Made by a program: the position numbers and the translations under genes | The notes under the pieces: model-generated | Database searches by the model: none | What the model was told of the DNA's origin: nothing | Seen by the model: only the letters and a program-made list of their open reading frames with translations | In this document: piece after piece, positions 34,632 through 44,080 of the stretch | How the letters are laid out: every line of letters begins with the position of its first letter | Numbering within the stretch: position 1 is the stretch's first letter | Virus record (IMG/VR): IMGVR_UViG_3300048861_000178 | Span: 251,191-315,190 of that record | Reading direction: 5' to 3' (one strand) | Source: a virus | Lineage: Duplodnaviria; Caudoviricetes | Length of the DNA stretch: 64,000 nucleotides

Positions 34632-36761
34632 GTGTCAGAAGCGAACAACCCATTTGTACTGGCGCCTTCCCAGTACAAGCGCGATCTAAACGTACTGGGC
34701 TATTATGTCCAGGATTGCGCGACCTATTTGCATCAAATGACGGGGGCACCGATCGAGGACTGCACCACCTTTGTGAAAACAGAGATGCGTCCTGGCGGAC
34801 AGTTCGAATTCAAGGACCCGAAGATCGTCTACCTGGAGCGCCAGGAAAACGGGGATCGTGTCCAGATGGAAGGCACGCTGCAAGCCTACCTGAATGATTC
34901 GATCCGTAACAAAGAACTCATTGCCCCGACGCTTACCACGTATTTGCACCCCGATGTGAAGCAGTCACCGCTCGTCGACTACATCGAGGGCAACGTGAAG
35001 GCACGGGGGGTGGCGAAGAAGGCCAAGTTCAAGGCGGAAATGGAAGGTGACATCGTCCTGATGCAGATCAAGGACAATGAGCAGACCAATAAGAAGCTGG
35101 CGAATAACTCGATCTCGGGTGCGCACGTCAGTCCTTCGACGCCGCTGTACAACAAGACCGCCCACTCGACGCTCACCTCGAACTGTCGTTCGACCTCGGG
35201 CTTTGGTAATGCGAATAACGAGAAGTTTCTCTCGGGCAATCGTCATTACTGGTCGATCGAGATCTGCATGCAGAATATCATCTCGATTATCAACCACACG
35301 GACTATGCAGCGCAAGCTGCGGCGATGCGCAAGTTTGGCATTCGTCATCCGTCGGTCGATGAGACGATGGAATGCATCATGTACTCGACCAACTTCTATG
35401 TGCGCGACAAGTTCAAGATGAAGAAGGTGTATGACCTGGTGAAGACGCTCTCGCCTGAGCAGCGTTCTGCCTTTGTCTACACCGGGGACTTGTACCACCT
35501 GATGCGCTTCAATGACGAGGTGGTGCGTACCTTCATCACCAAGTTGTCGATGATGGTGGAAGTGCCGCATCCGGAGCCCGATAGCATCTTGAAGACGGTG
35601 CAAGAAGAGCACGTGCACCTGGCAGCGCAAATCTGTGAGCGCTACACCAAAGGCTTGCAGATGCATGAAATCGTGGGTGAGGCTCGTGGTATTCTCGCCT
35701 CAACGGCCAAGAACATCGGCGACGTGGGCGAAGAGTATCGGGATCTGATCGCGGCTTTCTGGGTGACGACCAATGTCCCGGCCTCGCTTGCGTTCTTCCC
35801 GGATTCGATTCGTCGTTCGGCGATTACGTCGGATACGGACTCGACCATCTTTACCGTGCAAGACTGGGTGCTCTGGCATCAGGGCTGGCTCGGTTTTGAT
35901 GAGAAGTGTAATGCGGTCGCGGCCTCGATGGTGTACCTGGCGGCACAGACCATCATTCACGTGTTGGCGCGCATGAGTGCGAACTTTGGGATTGTGGAGA
36001 AGTACATTCACAAAGTCGCCATGAAGAACGAATTCAAGTTCGACGTGTTTGTCGCCACCCAGGTGGCCAAGCACTACTTCGCCTTGATTGGCTGCCAGGA
36101 AGGCAACCTCTTCAAGGAGTACAAGAAGGAAATCAAGGGCGTGCACTTGAAGGCGTCGAATGCGCCACGCTTTGTGATTAAAGAAGCCGAGAAGATGATG
36201 CTCTTTATCATGAACTCGGTGCTAAAGGGCGAGAAGATCAAGATTCACGATATCCTGAAAACGATTGCTGACATCGAGCGCCAGATCTTTACGGCGATTG
36301 GCGAAGGCGGTTATCAGTTCTTCCGGATGGGTCAGATCAAAACGCCCGATTCGTACGCGAAGTCGGCGGAAGAATCGCCGTATCAGCAGTACGTGATGTG
36401 GAACGAGGTATTTGGTCCCAAGTACGGTATCGCCCCCCCTGTACCGTACACGTGTGTCAAGATTGCCACCGAGCTGGACACACCGACCAAGACCCGTGAG
36501 TGGTTGGAATCGCTTGAGGATCGTGAACTGGCAGGTCGTATGGAAGCGTACATGAAGCGAATGGGTAAGCGCTATGTGGGCTCCGTGCAATTGCCGGAAC
36601 AGAATCTCCAGACCAAGGGGATTCCGACTGAGATCCTCCAGGTGGCCGGGGTGCGTAAGATCGTTGCGGATGCTACGCGCGTGTTTTACATTATCCTCGA
36701 AACGTTGGGCATTTATTTGTCCAATGACAAGCTCACGCGGCTGGTGAGCGACTCGCACTAA
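34632..36761 (+). CDS. Family-B DNA polymerase, polymerase-domain subunit (phiKZ gp50-like)
   Basis: Motif B KKLANNSISG, motif C SDTDS, KHY and KGVHLK; no exonuclease domain, consistent with the split polymerase of this phage group. Confidence 0.88.
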   Translation: MSEANNPFVLAPSQYKRDLNVLGYYVQDCATYLHQMTGAPIEDCTTFVKTEMRPGGQFEFKDPKIVYLERQENGDRVQMEGTLQAYLNDSIRNKELIAPTLTTYLHPDVKQSPLVDYIEGNVKARGVAKKAKFKAEMEGDIVLMQIKDNEQTNKKLANNSISGAHVSPSTPLYNKTAHSTLTSNCRSTSGFGNANNEKFLSGNRHYWSIEICMQNIISIINHTDYAAQAAAMRKFGIRHPSVDETMECIMYSTNFYVRDKFKMKKVYDLVKTLSPEQRSAFVYTGDLYHLMRFNDEVVRTFITKLSMMVEVPHPEPDSILKTVQEEHVHLAAQICERYTKGLQMHEIVGEARGILASTAKNIGDVGEEYRDLIAAFWVTTNVPASLAFFPDSIRRSAITSDTDSTIFTVQDWVLWHQGWLGFDEKCNAVAASMVYLAAQTIIHVLARMSANFGIVEKYIHKVAMKNEFKFDVFVATQVAKHYFALIGCQEGNLFKEYKKEIKGVHLKASNAPRFVIKEAEKMMLFIMNSVLKGEKIKIHDILKTIADIERQIFTAIGEGGYQFFRMGQIKTPDSYAKSAEESPYQQYVMWNEVFGPKYGIAPPVPYTCVKIATELDTPTKTREWLESLEDRELAGRMEAYMKRMGKRYVGSVQLPEQNLQTKGIPTEILQVAGVRKIVADATRVFYIILETLGIYLSNDKLTRLVSDSH

Positions 36762-37327: not shown

Positions 37328-38464
37328 TTATTGCGGCGTTGCCATCGCGGTGCCCCCGCGTTGACGAATCTTCTCTACCAGCTCGTCGATTTCCGTATTG
37401 ACGTCGTATAACACGTCGCCCGTGAGCACACTCGAGAAGTAAGCGCCGGAGCGATACTGGCGCACCGCCTGCATCAGGATATTCAACTGTTGCTGGTTGC
37501 GGATATTTGCCCCGCCCTGGTTACCACCTTCAGTGAGATCCACCATCACATCCAGCGCCGGAAAACGTGACAGGGCCAAGGCCCACTCCACTTGCCGGGT
37601 AGGGGCCATCTCCGGAATCGCCAGCGCCTCATCCAGATTGTCTTTGCTCACGCACGGAATGCTGCGCAACACCCCGGTAAAGTCCTGTCCCACGGCTTGC
37701 AGATTCGTGAGGACGGTGGTGTGCACTGCGTTGAGCTTCTGGCTAAAGTCCGTGATGTAGAAGGAATGGGGTTTGCCTTCACCCATCGGTGCGCCATGCA
37801 GCAGATTCCAGATCCGGTTCAGGATCACGTAGTCCAGATGCGTGTAAAGCATATTGGGCAGTACGTGCATGTGGACAAACTGTTGGATGGTGCGACCTGG
37901 CTCCCCAGTGCGAGCCGTATAGGCGTCTTCCTGCAAGCGAAACGCCCGGTACTGCACCGCCAGCATCGGGATATTGATCGCAATCACGGCGATGCCTTCT
38001 TCCGAACCCGTCTTCTTCCCATCGGGGAGATTGAGCATCAGATCACTACGCGGATGCCGCAGTACCCGGATCGCTTGTACGTGCTCCCAGTTGCGAGTGG
38101 CGTCGACAGGATCGAACTCCGCATTTTCCGCAATCAAGACTTCGGTGCAACCTGGCCCATAGAACACCCCGGAAAACACATGGCCCTTGGAAATCGACGA
38201 AGTCATTTTTAACGCCATGCCAAGATTCAATGACAGTGCGTCCACGATTGCGTAATACCGATCGAGGCTCAGGGCCTTAGGTGTGCTGATGGACTGCAGC
38301 AAACGAATCAGAAAGTGTTCCGATTCGACGGCCATGGAATGCGTGTGGTAGAACTCCACGACCTTTTTGAGGTTGTGTTTGAGTCCCTCTTTGGCGTAAT
38401 GCCAATTTGCTGCATACATGGTGGGCAGATTCACACCGGGCAACAAATTAAAAAGGCCGTGCAT
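37328..38464 (-). CDS. Conserved jumbo-phage protein (phiKZ gp52-like by position)
   Basis: 378 aa on the opposite strand between DNA polymerase and chimallin. Confidence 0.6.
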   Translation of the reverse strand: MHGLFNLLPGVNLPTMYAANWHYAKEGLKHNLKKVVEFYHTHSMAVESEHFLIRLLQSISTPKALSLDRYYAIVDALSLNLGMALKMTSSISKGHVFSGVFYGPGCTEVLIAENAEFDPVDATRNWEHVQAIRVLRHPRSDLMLNLPDGKKTGSEEGIAVIAINIPMLAVQYRAFRLQEDAYTARTGEPGRTIQQFVHMHVLPNMLYTHLDYVILNRIWNLLHGAPMGEGKPHSFYITDFSQKLNAVHTTVLTNLQAVGQDFTGVLRSIPCVSKDNLDEALAIPEMAPTRQVEWALALSRFPALDVMVDLTEGGNQGGANIRNQQQLNILMQAVRQYRSGAYFSSVLTGDVLYDVNTEIDELVEKIRQRGGTAMATPQ

Positions 38465-38683
38465 AGAAACGTCCTATATTAGTCAGATAAGCATACGATG
38501 AGGCCAGCCGATGTTCGGGGTAAACGTTGTTAAACGCACGACGATCAAGAATCCCGTGCGCATTCGTAATACCAATGCAAGCGGAAATTCGCAGCGTGTG
38601 AGCGGATACCGTCGGGGTGCATTGGATCGCCAGATTGCTGCTCAAGCCGCCTTGCGGCGTTGGGTATTTGAAGGAATCGTGGA

Positions 38684-38938
38684 ATGACTGCCGTCGTCGA
38701 TGATGAGGACCTGCATGCGATTCGTCATGCGGTCACAGGCCAGCAGAAGATTCTCCTGGTGAACGTGGGACCCAGCGCGACCGTCACCAAAGCCATCGTC
38801 GAAGTCCTCGCTAACAGTTCCTATATCTGTGTTGAAACCGAAGGCGTGCCGAAGAGTAACATCTTCGAGACTCAATACAGTCGTCAGCGCGAGTGGTGGA
38901 ACACCCCCAAGAAAGAACGTCGGAGAAAACGCAAATGA
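38684..38938 (+). CDS. Small protein with WW and basic tail
   Basis: AAGGA RBS; ends EWWNTPKKERRRKRK. Confidence 0.65.
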   Translation: MTAVVDDEDLHAIRHAVTGQQKILLVNVGPSATVTKAIVEVLANSSYICVETEGVPKSNIFETQYSRQREWWNTPKKERRRKRK

Positions 38939-39291
38939 ATTTCGATCAAACACGGGAAACCGTGGAGCCGGATAACCTTCTCGCCAGTGTTGGGATTATC
39001 CGTGGCTGGACTAGCTTTATCCGCCAGCATCCGGAAGTCTTCGACGAGAAGGACACCGCGGCTGAACCGTACATGTCACGCGCCTGTGCGCTCCTGATTG
39101 ACAGGTTCCAAGGCACGCCGGATGCCAATACCAGCATCTACACGTGTGACGTGGCTGATACGGCGCTGGTCGACAAGATCAAGACCTACTTCCCGTTTGT
39201 CATGTCGCGCGGTTCGGCCCGTGACCGAGGCGTGCCCAAAGCGCTCGAAAACATCCTCCTCGCCTTACCCAACATTCTGACCACGACATGA
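38935..39291 (+). CDS. Hypothetical protein
   Basis: ATGA overlap with the previous gene. Confidence 0.7.
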   Translation: MNFDQTRETVEPDNLLASVGIIRGWTSFIRQHPEVFDEKDTAAEPYMSRACALLIDRFQGTPDANTSIYTCDVADTALVDKIKTYFPFVMSRGSARDRGVPKALENILLALPNILTTT

Positions 39292-39467
39292 TCTCCTTTC
39301 ATTCCTACTGGTTGCCGATCTGGATCACGGTGTTCTGTGTGGGGCTACCCGGCCTGGTACTCGCCACACCTGAGCGTGTGCCGTTTCAAAGCATTGCTGC
39401 CGCAGGCTTTCTTCTGATCGGCTGCCTGATCTCCGCCGTCGCCTGGTTGTTGTGGTACGCCTTCTAG
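39288..39467 (+). CDS. Small two-TM membrane protein (59 aa, absent from the ORF track)
   Basis: ATGA overlap; MISFHSYWLPIWITVFCVGLPGLVLATPERVPFQSIAAAGFLLIGCLISAVAWLLWYAF. Confidence 0.65.
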   Translation: MISFHSYWLPIWITVFCVGLPGLVLATPERVPFQSIAAAGFLLIGCLISAVAWLLWYAF

Positions 39468-39475
39468 GAGTCGAG

Positions 39476-39724
39476 ATGTTTGATTCGCGCGATTACAAGA
39501 AACCTGTCACCTCGCCACCTTACACGACACCTGTGCAGTCACGCAGGCCTGCGCAACGGGTGTTCGATCAGATCTGTCCGCCCGCACCCAGCCCGTACTC
39601 GGAAGAAGAACTGAGCTACATGGCAGCGCCCCTCACGCCTGCGGAAGAGCGTCAAGAGCGGCGGGAGCGACAAGCCAAGCGAACCAAGAACCAACGCAGT
39701 CGTCAGTGGTGGAATCACCGGTGA
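39476..39724 (+). CDS. Small Pro-rich/basic protein ending QWWNHR
   Basis: AGGAG RBS before ATG 39476. Confidence 0.65.
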   Translation: [82 protein letters not shown]

Positions 39725-39730
39725 ACTAGC

Positions 39731-39955
39731 ATGGCCAAGCGTCAAAATAAACCATGGGCGCCGACATGGCGACAAGAACAAGAGCGGGGTGCACGTGCTA
39801 TCCAGCATCAGTTTAGCCGGATAGTACATAGTGCCCAACGGGGTGGTGAAGCTTGGACAGTCGAGGAAGCAGCCAACCGCCTAGCGGAAGTGCGGGCGGC
39901 GCTCGAAGAAGCCGAAGCAACACTAGAACGATACCAAGAACGAGAAGCAGCATGA
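39731..39955 (+). CDS. Small coiled-coil protein
   Basis: 74 aa, tightly packed in the operon. Confidence 0.65.
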   Translation: MAKRQNKPWAPTWRQEQERGARAIQHQFSRIVHSAQRGGEAWTVEEAANRLAEVRAALEEAEATLERYQEREAA

Positions 39956-40236
39956 GCGACGAGATCCAACTTCAACCCACCCCTGCCGAGATTGCTAAAG
40001 CCGCGATTGTCAAGCGGCTGGAAGCCCAGCGCGATAAGCTGGACGCAGCGATTATCAGCGGCTTCAATCGTAAGCATCCGGACAGTAAAGAACGCCACTG
40101 GCCGGAAGACTTCCCGCACGAAAACGGCATGTACGAATGCATCTGTCTGCACTGCCACCATCACTTCCTGGGCTACAAGCGCCGGATGTGTTGTAAAGTC
40201 TGTGCGAGTGCCAACGAGGAGAAGCAAAATGACTAA
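39952..40236 (+). CDS. Small zinc-ribbon protein
   Basis: ATGA overlap; CLHC-x-CKVC after WPEDFPHENGMY. Confidence 0.7.
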   Translation: MSDEIQLQPTPAEIAKAAIVKRLEAQRDKLDAAIISGFNRKHPDSKERHWPEDFPHENGMYECICLHCHHHFLGYKRRMCCKVCASANEEKQND

Positions 40237-40498
40237 CCTCCATGGTTGGGCCTTGGTTCGCCTGGCGTACACCCTCGTCTACTTCGTGCTCGCTGCCGGT
40301 ACGATGTGGTGGTTCAAGGCTCAGCTAGAACCGGTGGTGACACGTACGTTCTTCGTCGTCGATGGCGAACGCTGGGCTGCTAAGCAGACCGTGTATCGCT
40401 ACGTCACCAATCCGAGACTGTACTTCTGGGAGTACGTAGCGATCGGGCTCTTCTTGGTGCTGGCCATTCCCCTGCTTCTTCTGTGGTACATCACGTAA
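40229..40498 (+). CDS. Small two-TM membrane protein
   Basis: GAGGAG RBS; two hydrophobic segments. Confidence 0.7.
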   Translation: MTNLHGWALVRLAYTLVYFVLAAGTMWWFKAQLEPVVTRTFFVVDGERWAAKQTVYRYVTNPRLYFWEYVAIGLFLVLAIPLLLLWYIT

Positions 40499-40499
40499 C

Positions 40500-40808
40500 A
40501 TGGCTAAATTCGAACGCACTAAGCCCCACATCAGCGTGGGCACCATCGCTCACTACCGTACAGGCAACGCGCGCAGCCACGCACGCATGTTGATGCAACT
40601 GGCCGCGCTGAATGCCGTGGTTGCTGCGCAAGACACCAGTAGCGTGACGCTGTATGGTAACGAGAGCACGGGACCGAAGACGTACACCAACATGAACCAG
40701 GGTCCGATGCAGGATTATCGGACCCGCGATGAGCGGCGCGGCAAGAAGAAACGCAAGCACGGACCGAAGTCGGGCTCACGCTACAAGAAAGGGAGGTGGT
40801 GGGAATGA
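40500..40808 (+). CDS. Small protein starting with an EF-Tu N-terminal-like peptide
   Basis: [18 protein letters not shown] versus EF-Tu [20 protein letters not shown]; basic tail ending RWWE. Confidence 0.7.
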   Translation: [102 protein letters not shown]

Positions 40809-41281
40809 ACCGGGATGAAGAATGTACACGGATCATCGATCAGCTGCGGGAAGCGACCAAGGCTTATCTGGAGCCGATTGACCAGAGCGTCGAACCCCTC
40901 ACCGTAGCGCTACCGGATGGCACCCCAGTCATGGAGATCACATCCCAGCATAAAGGTGCTTTCCGGGAGTTGCCGATTCTTTACGTGGAGCACGCCTTAC
41001 ACGCACCCCACGTCATTGAGGCGATTCGTGCTGCCAAGCTGCCCCTGATTGTCATTGCTTCCCCCGAAGAATTGCGCGGTGAGCTTAAGAGTCGCGGCAT
41101 GAGTGAGCGTGAGATCCTGGAAAAACTTACTGGGATGGTGCATCCCATGAGAAGTGACGTCGAGCCATTGGGCTTGGCAGAAGTTGTACACGCTATGCCC
41201 GCATTCAAGGTGAATAACCCTGGGAAAAGCTCCCAGCGGCCCGCCTTGCCCAAGAACAGAAAACGCGATCGGTGGAACTGA
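40805..41281 (+). CDS. Hypothetical protein with basic tail ending RWN
   Basis: ATGA overlap, GGAGG RBS. Confidence 0.7.
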   Translation: MNRDEECTRIIDQLREATKAYLEPIDQSVEPLTVALPDGTPVMEITSQHKGAFRELPILYVEHALHAPHVIEAIRAAKLPLIVIASPEELRGELKSRGMSEREILEKLTGMVHPMRSDVEPLGLAEVVHAMPAFKVNNPGKSSQRPALPKNRKRDRWN

Positions 41282-41916
41282 TGATGGATGTTAAGGTAGA
41301 GAGCGCGGCTGCGTTGCCCGTCTCGGAAGAAGAAGCTGCGCGACTGGCTGAGATCCAAGATGGTCTCATGGTCGAGCAAGCCATGCGGGAACAAGCCGAA
41401 GCCGAACCGCGTAAAAGCGTTCCGGTGCTCGACGACGTGATGAACGCCGACGAACTGGAACAGATCACGCTCGAAGGCTTGGCTGCCAATCCGGAACAAA
41501 CCCCGGAACAGGTCGAGCAGGCGATGCAGATGGCGCAACAGCAAGAAGCCTATCTGAACTACTTGAAGCAGCAACGCTTCTGGCAATTCATGACACACCG
41601 TCCGCAACCGGCGAGCGCACGCACCTGTGAATGGGGGCTTGTCAAGTACCTGCTCATCTGTCACGAGAAGCGCGAGTTCGATCATCAGCCGGAAATCGCC
41701 GCACTCTTCGACGGCCAGTGGTACCACGGCATCCTCACCGGCAACATCGCGGTGTATCGTCAAGACGACGGCGAAGTGAAGGTGGCTCTGAAGCGACCGT
41801 ACATTGGTGTTACCACCAACGTCCAGTACACGGACGCGGAGCTCGCCGCGCAGAAGCTCCAGCAGCACAAAGCGATGCCGCGCAAGCAGCGTCGCCAGGC
41901 AGAATTGGCGAAGTAA
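41281..41916 (+). CDS. Hypothetical protein, acidic N-half
   Basis: TGATG overlap, 211 aa. Confidence 0.75.
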   Translation: MMDVKVESAAALPVSEEEAARLAEIQDGLMVEQAMREQAEAEPRKSVPVLDDVMNADELEQITLEGLAANPEQTPEQVEQAMQMAQQQEAYLNYLKQQRFWQFMTHRPQPASARTCEWGLVKYLLICHEKREFDHQPEIAALFDGQWYHGILTGNIAVYRQDDGEVKVALKRPYIGVTTNVQYTDAELAAQKLQQHKAMPRKQRRQAELAK

Positions 41917-42055
41917 ATTCTTACTGCGATAATGCCTATGGTATAGAGACAGCTTTGCCGCTGTCTTTACTCCTAGCCAGTCTTACCCACTGGCTAGGGG
42001 ACCCCCTATGAGCGAGGTTTGATCTTGCTCCAGCAGAGCTGAGTAATTTGTGCAC

Positions 42056-42087
42056 GATTCAAAGATTTATTAGACACATATTACTAA
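42056..42087 (+). promoter_or_regulatory. Early promoter of chimallin
   Basis: GATTCAAAGATTTATTAGACACATATTACTAA, 29/32 identical to 3868-3899. Confidence 0.75.
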
Positions 42088-42169
42088 ACTGTGCTGGATT
42101 AGAGAATCGCTCTTTTCTAGCATACACTCGAGTGTATTAAACGATAATTCTGAAACAAGGAATAGCACT

Positions 42170-44080
42170 ATGGCAATCGAACAACCGGGCCAAGAAGGCC
42201 AAGCCGCAGCTCCGGCAGAAACGCAAATGGCAGCGGGTTTCACCCGTGCCAAGGACAACCAGAACTCTCAACCGCGAGGCACCATGAACCAGCAACAACA
42301 ATCCGCACCGGCGGGCTTCAGCTTCCGCTCGCTCGGCCGTCTGGGCAACGCACCGATGGGCCGCAACCCGGCTGCTGAAGTGCTCGTCAAGCTCGAGAAG
42401 GCGCTGACCGAAACGTACAAGTCGGCGAACCCGGCTTTCGAGATCAAGCTGCTCCCGCTCGACATGAACAACAACCCGGCGATCGCGCGCTCGGCGCTCA
42501 TCGTAGCCCTGTTCGACAAGAACGACCTGGACCTGGGCGTCGCGTACCACACGCTGATCCTCGCGGGCTCGGGCGAACCGTTCCCGCCGAAGTACGACCA
42601 GATCAACGGTCAGAACGTCGAAATCCAGCGTGTCGACGGCGACGTGTGGGACGACAAGTTCCGCGAAGTCGTGGCCGATGCCGTGGCCCGTACGTTCAAC
42701 GGCGCGCGTCTGATCGACGCTGAAGCCGAAGTCGTGCCGCGTTCGTTCGACGTCGCAGACGAACAGCTCGTGTACCAACTCGCCGCGAACGCCCTGTTTG
42801 CCGCGAACCACGAACTGAACCGCATGCGTCCGGACTTCCGCGACCTGAACCTGGCTGGCGCAGCACGCGACTCGAACCTGACCGCGCGCGTCGCGTTCAA
42901 CCACGACCAACTGGTCGACCCGGTCGGCGAGCCGATCCGTACCGATGTGATGATCGACCTGATCGCCACGGCCATCACGACCGGCCAGGGCGCCAACGCA
43001 GACGCACGCGCGACGAAAGTCTCGCAAGTCGGCGGCTTCCTCGACCTCGTGTGGGACCCGGTCGCACCGACCGCGAACCCGTACGCGCAGTGGGGCCAAG
43101 CGCAGCAACAGCAGTTCAACCCGCTGTACATCACGCACTTCGTGATGACGCATCTGGAAACGCTCGAGCTGATGACCGTTCCGGCACAGCTGTTCGCGCT
43201 GGTTCAGGCGCTCACGCTGCGCGACGGCAACGCATGGGCACGTGGTTTCGCACCGCGTCCTTACGCGCAAGGCATCGACATGCACGACATCGGTGCAATC
43301 GGTATCGAAGCGAATCCGGAAGGCAACGCGAACGGCATCGGCGCGCGCATCGACACGAAGTCGGACGCGTTCACGGCACAAGGCACGCTGCACAAGCTGC
43401 TGCAAGCTTTCGTGCGTCCGGGCCTGCTGCTCTCGATCGACGTGCCGGAATGCGGTCCGTCGACCTGGTCGAACTCGGTGTTCGCGGCTGCAGCTGAAGG
43501 CAGCCCGAAGGCCAACGAGTTCATCATCGAAGCAGCGCAGACGCTGACGAACGGCAACTTCCTGAAGCACTACACGAACGGCACGGGCCGCGTTGCGTTC
43601 GACAACAACAACCGCATTCACCTGGGTTGGTACGTCGACCAGCAAGGTCGCAAGCGCGACATCCGCGACATCGACTACCTCGCGGTAGCGAACCTGATCG
43701 GCGAGAAGGACCCGACGGTCATCAAGGACTGGAGCGACACGTTCGTCAATCTGCAAATCTCGCCCGCGCAGCGTCTCGCGCGTCGCAAGAACATCATCCA
43801 GGGTCTGGTCGGCGATGCAACCTTCACGGGTTTCGCACGTCGTGCAACGCTGGACGGTGCGTTCATGGAAGCGCTGGCCAAGGGCTGCGTGGATGCGGGT
43901 CTCGTCCTGCGTGCACAATACCCGTTCGGCGACGTCGCGGGTCAAGAGCGTGCAACGGCGCAGTTCGCCAACGGCCTGCTCATGGCTCCGGGTGCAACCG
44001 GTCTGTTCGCGGCTGGCTTCGGCGGTCAGTCGAACCAAGGCGCTGGCTGGGGCCGCACGGGCTTCAGCTCGCGCTGGTAA
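42170..44080 (+). CDS. chmA: Chimallin, nuclear shell protein (phiKZ gp54-like)
   Basis: 636 aa, extreme codon bias, early promoter and strong terminator, immediately upstream of nvRNAP beta'; RDIRDIDYLAVAN segment; flexible termini. Confidence 0.88.
   Translation: MAIEQPGQEGQAAAPAETQMAAGFTRAKDNQNSQPRGTMNQQQQSAPAGFSFRSLGRLGNAPMGRNPAAEVLVKLEKALTETYKSANPAFEIKLLPLDMNNNPAIARSALIVALFDKNDLDLGVAYHTLILAGSGEPFPPKYDQINGQNVEIQRVDGDVWDDKFREVVADAVARTFNGARLIDAEAEVVPRSFDVADEQLVYQLAANALFAANHELNRMRPDFRDLNLAGAARDSNLTARVAFNHDQLVDPVGEPIRTDVMIDLIATAITTGQGANADARATKVSQVGGFLDLVWDPVAPTANPYAQWGQAQQQQFNPLYITHFVMTHLETLELMTVPAQLFALVQALTLRDGNAWARGFAPRPYAQGIDMHDIGAIGIEANPEGNANGIGARIDTKSDAFTAQGTLHKLLQAFVRPGLLLSIDVPECGPSTWSNSVFAAAAEGSPKANEFIIEAAQTLTNGNFLKHYTNGTGRVAFDNNNRIHLGWYVDQQGRKRDIRDIDYLAVANLIGEKDPTVIKDWSDTFVNLQISPAQRLARRKNIIQGLVGDATFTGFARRATLDGAFMEALAKGCVDAGLVLRAQYPFGDVAGQERATAQFANGLLMAPGATGLFAAGFGGQSNQGAGWGRTGFSSRW

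Follow-up and report, generated by a model that had tools for sequence, protein, structure and literature searches.

Why would a small protein of a large phage begin with a copy of the N-terminus of EF-Tu, and is that copy doing anything? No bacterial protein is more abundant than EF-Tu, and conflicts between phages and their hosts converge on it: Lit, type IV Thoeris, Avs7, Doc, and Qbeta replicase all target or exploit it. The N-terminal arm of EF-Tu varies hardly at all among bacteria, yet we know of no well-defined partner for it. The window, by which we mean the whole stretch of 64,000 bases that was analyzed, spans positions 251191 to 315190 of a phage genome of 315,190 bases that is 98% complete. 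A preliminary description of this DNA had pointed to one short open reading frame whose product starts with an EF-Tu-like peptide; we refer to that product as P0002. The gene and the parts of its product are as follows.

40500-40808, plus strand: coding sequence of P0002, 102 residues; its family is unannotated and has Burkholderia phage FLC9 gp386 among its members.
40506-40553, plus strand: copy of the EF-Tu arm and strand β1 (codons 3 to 18), the best-conserved block of the P0002 family.
40554-40625, plus strand: relic of a degenerate P-loop (Gly-rich, Lys and Thr lost) and of helix α1 (codons 19 to 42), delimited by the TIGR00485 alignment, the divergent relatives P0020 and P0022, and AlphaFold2.
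40716-40805, plus strand: Arg/Lys-rich C-terminal tail (codons 73 to 102), the second conserved module of the family.

Intact homologs on more than 20 contigs, the annotation of FLC9 gp386, and an in-frame pN/pS below 1 indicate that the reading frame is real. The protein starts with Met-Ala, and the EF-Tu-like block follows as residues 3 to 18. As the preliminary description had stated, 13 of its 16 residues are identical to the EF-Tu 16-mer, and the three differences (Val to Ile, Asn to Ser, and Gly to Ala) are all conservative. The short helix and K/R-rich tail reported for the remainder were likewise recovered. An AlphaFold2 model from a 20-sequence alignment is mostly disordered and of low confidence (mean pLDDT, 58), with low-confidence helices at residues 24 to 42 and, in the basic region, at residues 76 to 90; 14 of the final 30 residues are Lys or Arg, and the pI of the protein is 10.7. 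The disorder in the model would leave the N-terminal segment exposed. An ESM Atlas search returned only rows with a TM score below 0.5 and no usable feature match. On its composition, the tail may bind RNA, and we take it to resemble the arginine-rich motifs of the lambda N type. The tail also contains a KKKRK run (window positions 40734-40748, residues 79 to 83) with the residues of a classical eukaryotic nuclear localization signal; the phage does build a nucleus-like compartment, but the match is probably a coincidence.

Sequence and profile searches identified EF-Tu as the source of the block. When P0002 was queried with phmmer against all PDB sequences, the top 47 matches were all EF-Tu chains (best E value, 2e-4), and a profile of the P0002 family matched EF-Tu alone in the PDB (best E value, 2.8e-8). 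Residues 2 to 39 of P0002 aligned with positions 4 to 41 of the NCBIfam EF-Tu model TIGR00485 (E value, 2.2e-4). These matches indicate that the resemblance is specific and beyond chance, and it is collinear with EF-Tu from the N-terminus, as in an EF-Tu-derived N-terminal fragment. The TIGR00485 score was 20 bits against a cutoff of 522 and covered positions 4 to 41 only, and Pfam, PF00009 included, gave no match to P0002 at E values up to 10. Residues 17 to 27 are without the Lys and Thr of the G1 P-loop (GxxxxGK[ST]), in agreement with the earlier observation that the similarity fades at this point, and the rest of the G domain (G2 RGITI, G3 DxxG, and G4 NKxD) is missing, as are domains II and III. 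Because the P-loop Lys and Thr and everything downstream are gone, P0002 cannot be a GTPase. A search of the whole phage genome for a PF00009/GTP_EFTU domain found none. In PHROGs, P0002 matched only phrog_27465 (E value, 0.004); the match was confined to positions 5 to 26 of that 59-position profile, which correspond to the EF-Tu copy, and did not extend over its full length. A complex prediction for the P0002 family with Burkholderia thailandensis EF-Tu, a single run free of controls, scored 0.00 and speaks neither for nor against an interaction.

About 25 homologs of P0002 were collected, down to roughly 50% identity. A word-indexed search yielded 15 metagenomic homologs with 50 to 85% identity, tblastn yielded Burkholderia phage FLC9 gp386 with 54% identity, six loci came from IMG/VR, and three more distant ones were added by an exhaustive profile search. 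Against 50,697 phage records, tblastn with P0002 found nothing beyond FLC9 and EF-Tu-like starts. Every homolog that has the N-terminal part keeps the EF-Tu block, and the preliminary claim came through this comparison intact. The family consensus over the block is identical to the EF-Tu 16-mer, as is FLC9 gp386 itself (16 of 16 residues), and K3, F4, R6, K8, P9, H10, V13, G14, and T15 are invariant. Two residues may be gained or lost ahead of the block: several members have two additional starting residues, as in EF-Tu, giving a MAKGK-type form that is also found in 12 of 83 metagenomic tuf genes. Those tuf genes came from a scan of metagenome contigs that was dominated by genuine tuf and served as a tuf reference set only; the tracking of host-specific EF-Tu residues is weak, as it draws on them and not on the host's own tuf.

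The divergent members of the family preserve more of EF-Tu. P0020 aligns with positions 1 to 37 of TIGR00485 (E value, 5.5e-10) and P0022 with positions 1 to 41 (E value, 1.8e-7); both retain more of the P-loop and helix α1, and P0020 still fits the Walker-A pattern with Arg replacing Lys. Since these members align with EF-Tu up to position 41, the original capture extended through α1. The alignments show an ancestral capture of EF-Tu residues ~1 to 41 (arm, β1, P-loop, and α1), with the P-loop lost later in the P0002 lineage. In all family members a Gly-rich loop followed by a helix persists, and the loop is their most variable stretch.

The basic tail has a history of its own. The metagenomic relative P0026 carries the basic C-terminal module fused to a Cys-rich domain homologous to the product of ORF 39853-40236 of the window, and it is without the EF-Tu block. 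Because the tail occurs there on a different N-terminal part, it is a module that can be separated, and the modules of these proteins do shuffle. Separately, a frame at positions 1 to 81 of a 6140-base IMG/VR contig (L025) tracks a tuf 5' end as far as the Gly before the P-loop, continues with eight unrelated residues, and then stops, at the end of the contig. This frame may result from a chimeric assembly, mark an integration junction, or belong to a further gene for an EF-Tu N-fragment.

The preliminary description had left it to be settled whether the 16-mer is conserved as amino acids or as nucleotides. In a codon alignment of 13 family genes, the three parts of the gene gave the following values.

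16-codon EF-Tu block: pS 0.665, pN 0.063, pN/pS 0.095.
Middle of the gene: pS 0.72, pN 0.36, pN/pS 0.49.
Basic tail: pS 0.69, pN 0.14, pN/pS 0.21.

Synonymous divergence in the block is thus near saturation and close to that in the rest of the gene, and each invariant block residue is encoded by two to four different codons. When the block was compared with 83 tuf 5' ends, the best nucleotide identity was 35 to 45 of 48 positions, no better than the common amino acids predict. Because synonymous sites are saturated while replacements are rare, these comparisons show purifying selection on the amino acids of the arm and strand and not on the nucleotides. A decaying recent tuf fragment, the weak point against which the preliminary claim had been set, is ruled out by the saturated synonymous sites together with the invariant residues. 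An initiation element taken from the tuf 5' end and acting at the nucleotide level is ruled out by the free synonymous sites. Of the interpretations offered earlier, a mimic, decoy, or modulator therefore gains from the peptide-level selection, and reuse of a tuf 5' end for initiation does not survive it.

We also examined the setting of the gene, for which these features are relevant.

34632-36761, plus strand: divergent family B DNA polymerase (PF20286; E value, 6e-244), the upstream border of a conserved block.
40229-40498, plus strand: upstream protein of 89 residues with two strongly hydrophobic helices; no family match in Pfam, PHROGs, or NCBIfam.
40496-40502, plus strand: TAA of the upstream gene, one spacer base, and the ATG of P0002, read from the sequence.
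40791-40808, plus strand: Shine-Dalgarno sequence GGGAGG (40791-40796) and ATGA stop/start overlap for the next gene, read from the sequence.
40805-41281, plus strand: downstream protein of 158 residues, translationally coupled and with a basic tail of its own; no family match.
42170-44080, plus strand: chimallin, the shell protein of the phage nucleus (PF25677; E value, 1e-54).

No Shine-Dalgarno sequence precedes the ATG of P0002, which lies one base after a stop codon, so translation of P0002 is probably coupled to that of the upstream gene; several homologs have clear GGAG-type sites before the start. Compared with shuffled sequence, the start region has less structure (z, +1.84), and no RNA structure was found there. 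At the other end, the bases of 40791-40808 also encode the terminal Gly-Arg-Trp-Trp-Glu of P0002. Since the last codons overlap the Shine-Dalgarno sequence and start of the next gene, the terminal Trp-Trp-Glu would be partly constrained as nucleotides. This 3' junction is nearly identical in 11 of 13 relatives; FLC9 and the locus L106 have a variant form with a GTG start.

Small plus-strand genes stand close together at 38684-41916, and the P0002 gene is one of them. Searches of these small neighbors against Pfam, PHROGs, and NCBIfam named none of them except for a match of the Cys-rich ORF 39853-40236 (CxxC pairs), two positions upstream of P0002, to phrog_8931, whose function is listed as unknown in PHROGs. 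The ORF at 40229-40498, which on its hydrophobic helices is a predicted small membrane protein, overlaps the end of the Cys-rich ORF by eight bases, and its position is conserved in relatives. The AlphaFold2 model of the downstream protein (40805-41281) had a pLDDT of 55. That protein and those encoded at 38684-38938 and 39452-39724 have Arg/Lys-rich ends, with 8 to 11 Lys plus Arg in the final 30 residues, and two of the three have a Trp-Trp pair near the end. They may have a tail module in common with P0002, or the Trp codons may stem from the GGTGG-type ribosome-binding sites of the next genes.

A gene for an RNA-polymerase subunit follows chimallin, and the order DNA polymerase, small genes, chimallin is kept in relatives, including 326-kb genomes. 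From the presence of chimallin and its conserved order, we conclude that this is a nucleus-forming jumbo phage. The sequencing runs in which parts of this region occur come from metagenomes of soil, the rhizosphere, and plants. From the position of its gene, we infer that P0002 would be expressed early; a promoter and terminator scan of 38300-42300 gave hits at chance level.

EF-Tu N-terminal fragments are not confined to the P0002 family. When phage records were searched for EF-Tu-like starts, the same EF-Tu span was found on otherwise unrelated small phage proteins.

Vibrio phages henriette (VPDG_00052) and 2.058: 59 amino acids.
Vibrio phage 1.244.A (NVP1244A_125), Ackermannviridae: 133 amino acids.
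Vibrio phage 150E35-1 (VP150E351_P0089; locus L003, positions 1492-2211): 239 amino acids, RGITI-type motif kept.
Aggregatibacter phage Aaphi23 ORF27 (phrog_27465): 59 amino acids, in the nin region.
Pseudomonas phage Dolphis gp88: 92 amino acids.
Erwinia Machinavirus jumbo phages (phrog_12626): 109 amino acids, copy internal and basic tail absent.

Outside the EF-Tu copy these proteins have nothing in common, and their genomic contexts differ. The element common to all is the end of β1 with the first P-loop residues. Like P0002, the other phage proteins are small and carry the copy at or near the N-terminus, most of them with an Arg/Lys-rich tail; a basic tail with 10 to 14 Lys plus Arg in the final 30 residues is present in six of the eight lineages counted, the P0002 family included. 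Most keep more of the P-loop, whereas the P0002 family keeps the arm and strand and has lost the P-loop. In the Dolphis and Erwinia phages, the copy either lacks its first arm residues or is located internally. Both phrog_27465 and phrog_12626 are filed in PHROGs as being of unknown function, and a literature search on phage EF-Tu fragments or mimics, the peptide string included, returned nothing on phages and only work on plant EFR. Phage EF-Tu N-fragments are a genuine, recurrent feature, and we found no publication that describes such proteins. Since the peptide is under selection and comparable copies are borne by unrelated phage proteins, a function for the copy is very probable.

Two of these proteins showed further features. 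The 150E35-1 protein has a near-intact P-loop, an ERGITISN sequence ~100 residues later, and a basic tail at its end. The ERGITISN sequence matches the EF-Tu effector loop that is cut by Lit and by the type IV Thoeris caspase, and it is conceivable that this protein is a protease decoy. In Erwinia phage pEa_SNUABM_8 (locus L007, positions 582-1458), the EF-Tu-like gene directly follows a GNAT acetyltransferase gene and lies near a macro-domain gene; the N-terminus of EF-Tu is acetylated in E. coli.

What might the copy be for? The reading that we favor, tentatively and at somewhat less than even confidence, is that P0002 is an RNA-tethered mimic or competitor fragment of the EF-Tu N-terminus. 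A piece of a host tuf 5' end (residues ~1 to 41) has been captured and turned into a small and largely disordered protein, now domesticated in nucleus-forming jumbo phages that infect bacteria of soil and the rhizosphere. Its Arg/Lys-rich tail would tether it to RNA, be it the ribosome, tRNA, or phage RNA, and its N-terminal segment would occupy the normal binder of the EF-Tu arm and first strand. This binder may lie on EF-Tu itself, as a docking surface, or it may be a conserved factor of the host that recognizes the segment when EF-Tu is nascent, unfolded, or cleaved by a defense system. Early in infection, translation would then be modulated, or an EF-Tu-linked host response would be blunted.

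Mimicry is the most economical reading, and it gains support from the selection on the peptide and from its recurrence in unrelated phages. Structures of trypsin-cut EF-Tu (PDB 5I4R and 2HCJ) are consistent with it, as the N-terminal fragment is present in them as separate chains of 45 and 37 residues that are still bound by the remainder of EF-Tu. It is moreover well established that essential bacterial proteins can be inhibited by dominant-negative fragments (PMC9245647). The conserved position of the P0002 gene, beside chimallin and an RNA-polymerase subunit, also fits. Against mimicry, β1 is buried in folded EF-Tu, so that a reader must see unfolded or nascent EF-Tu or the fragment must displace the in-cis strand, both of which are demanding. 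EF-Tu is also so abundant that its stoichiometric titration is unlikely, and the Erwinia version has an internal copy and no basic tail. A purely structural role, finally, would give equally strong conservation of a short strand.

A structural role of this kind is the most serious alternative, and we consider it unlikely. A strand-Gly-rich loop-helix unit could have been exapted without mimicry, as a phosphate- or nucleic acid-binding or oligomerization element; with the tail it would make a small RNA- or DNA-binding protein, and the identity to EF-Tu would be historical. Short β-(P-loop)-α polypeptides are reported to bind nucleic acids, the Gly-rich loop and helix are present in all members, with P0020 Walker-A-like with Arg, and basic tails recur, similar ones being found on the neighboring small genes. 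However, the loop is the least conserved part of the P0002 family, and the stretch of arm ahead of the strand, a flexible element of EF-Tu, is invariant in it. Moreover, phages always use the strand and P-loop of EF-Tu and never those of another P-loop NTPase, and the long forms match a bacterial N-terminal variant.

A second alternative, which we regard as quite unlikely, is that P0002 acts as a decoy or pseudosubstrate for proteases that inactivate EF-Tu (Lit and the type IV Thoeris caspase-like protease) or antagonizes the response to the N-terminal cleavage fragment of EF-Tu. Type IV Thoeris cuts EF-Tu after R45 and R59 (bioRxiv 10.1101/2024.10.24.620036), and Lit cuts in the same loop (PMC13581612). 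Both cuts fall just C-terminal of the copied segment (bioRxiv 10.1101/2024.10.24.620036), and the copied span, model positions 1 to 41, is exactly the piece N-terminal of them. The tail of P0002 is rich in Arg, the residue that the caspase-like protease requires, and the Vibrio 150E35-1 analog keeps an RGITI-type motif matching the cleavage loop. Yet that loop (Arg45, Arg59, and the Gly-Ile of RGITI) is absent from P0002 and from the family consensus, and a role as decoy substrate is therefore unsupported for P0002. The caspase-like protease is also described as promiscuous and free of specific EF-Tu recognition (bioRxiv 10.1101/2024.10.24.620036). As the preliminary description had it, Lit and Doc act at other sites of EF-Tu than the copied one. 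Lit, for its part, acts only when the T4 Gol peptide is bound to domains II and III of EF-Tu.

Very unlikely, in our estimate, is a leader function, in which the start of the most abundant protein of the cell is reused for initiation, early elongation, N-terminal processing, or stability. Such a leader would account for the position of the copy at the very N-terminus in P0002 and in several other phages, and it suits a gene with an unstructured start region and no Shine-Dalgarno sequence of its own. With synonymous sites free, however, any effect would have to act through the peptide, and conservation runs to residue 18, and elsewhere through the P-loop and helix, far past known N-terminal effects. 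The loss or addition of two residues before the block and the Dolphis and Erwinia copies, which are internal or without the first arm residues, are likewise difficult to reconcile with a leader. Both the exapted unit and the leader fit fewer observations than mimicry does, because the flexible arm is invariant, the EF-Tu version is used exclusively, and internal or arm-less copies occur elsewhere. The last possibility, of a tuf fragment (recent or decaying), an element acting at the nucleotide level, or an ORF that arose by chance, has the resemblance itself in its favor and nothing more, and this practically negligible reading is refuted by the codon analysis (saturated synonymous divergence with invariant residues) and the tuf nucleotide comparison, as well as contradicted by intact homologs and conserved synteny in diverged genomes.

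Returning to mimicry of the EF-Tu N-terminus, a wider generalization is possible rather than likely: many phage lineages may repeatedly have taken the first 20 to 40 residues of EF-Tu and fused them to RNA-binding tails, forming a so far undescribed class of host-fragment effectors that would act on translation or EF-Tu-linked immunity via the arm and first strand. If this is true, the common partner of such effectors would reveal what the EF-Tu arm does in bacteria. A segment that is kept by unrelated phages and selected as a peptide points to a conserved cellular reader that has yet to be named, and it could yield a new mechanism of host takeover or counter-defense or a new peptide handle on EF-Tu. 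Cultured relatives make the question accessible, among them FLC9 in Burkholderia glumae and the Vibrio, Pseudomonas, and Aggregatibacter phages.

Several known systems offer points of comparison. The elf18 peptide of the plant EFR system comprises the same region of EF-Tu as the P0002 block, and to this extent the link drawn in the preliminary description holds; the short forms of the P0002 family differ from elf18 in that two residues are missing before the KF pair. We reject EFR as a selective explanation: this plant receptor is extracellular, and we see no way for it to exert selection on a phage protein that is intracellular. With bacterial EF-Tu, the P0002 family consensus shares the full 16 residues of arm and strand, but P0002 has only 102 residues, is without GK[ST], G2 to G5, and domains II and III, and continues in an unrelated linker and basic tail. 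The closest natural counterpart in extent is the proteolytic N-fragment of EF-Tu (5I4R, 2HCJ, and the products of Thoeris cleavage at R45 and R59 and of Lit), which covers the same span as the copy; P0002, in contrast, is encoded as such, has a degenerate P-loop, and carries ~60 extra residues. The engineered dominant-negative fragments of E. coli (PMC9245647) embody the same principle, a fragment of a host protein that competes for the native contacts of its parent, but they are artificial, and EF-Tu is not shown among them. Finally, PhiKZ gp014 and Churi gp335 are early jumbo-phage proteins that bind host ribosomes (PMC10914614 and PMC11849849). By sequence, P0002 has no homology of the gp014 type in tblastn against the 50,697 phage records. 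In common with P0002, gp014 and gp335 are small and come from phages that form a nucleus; their target is the translation apparatus of the host.
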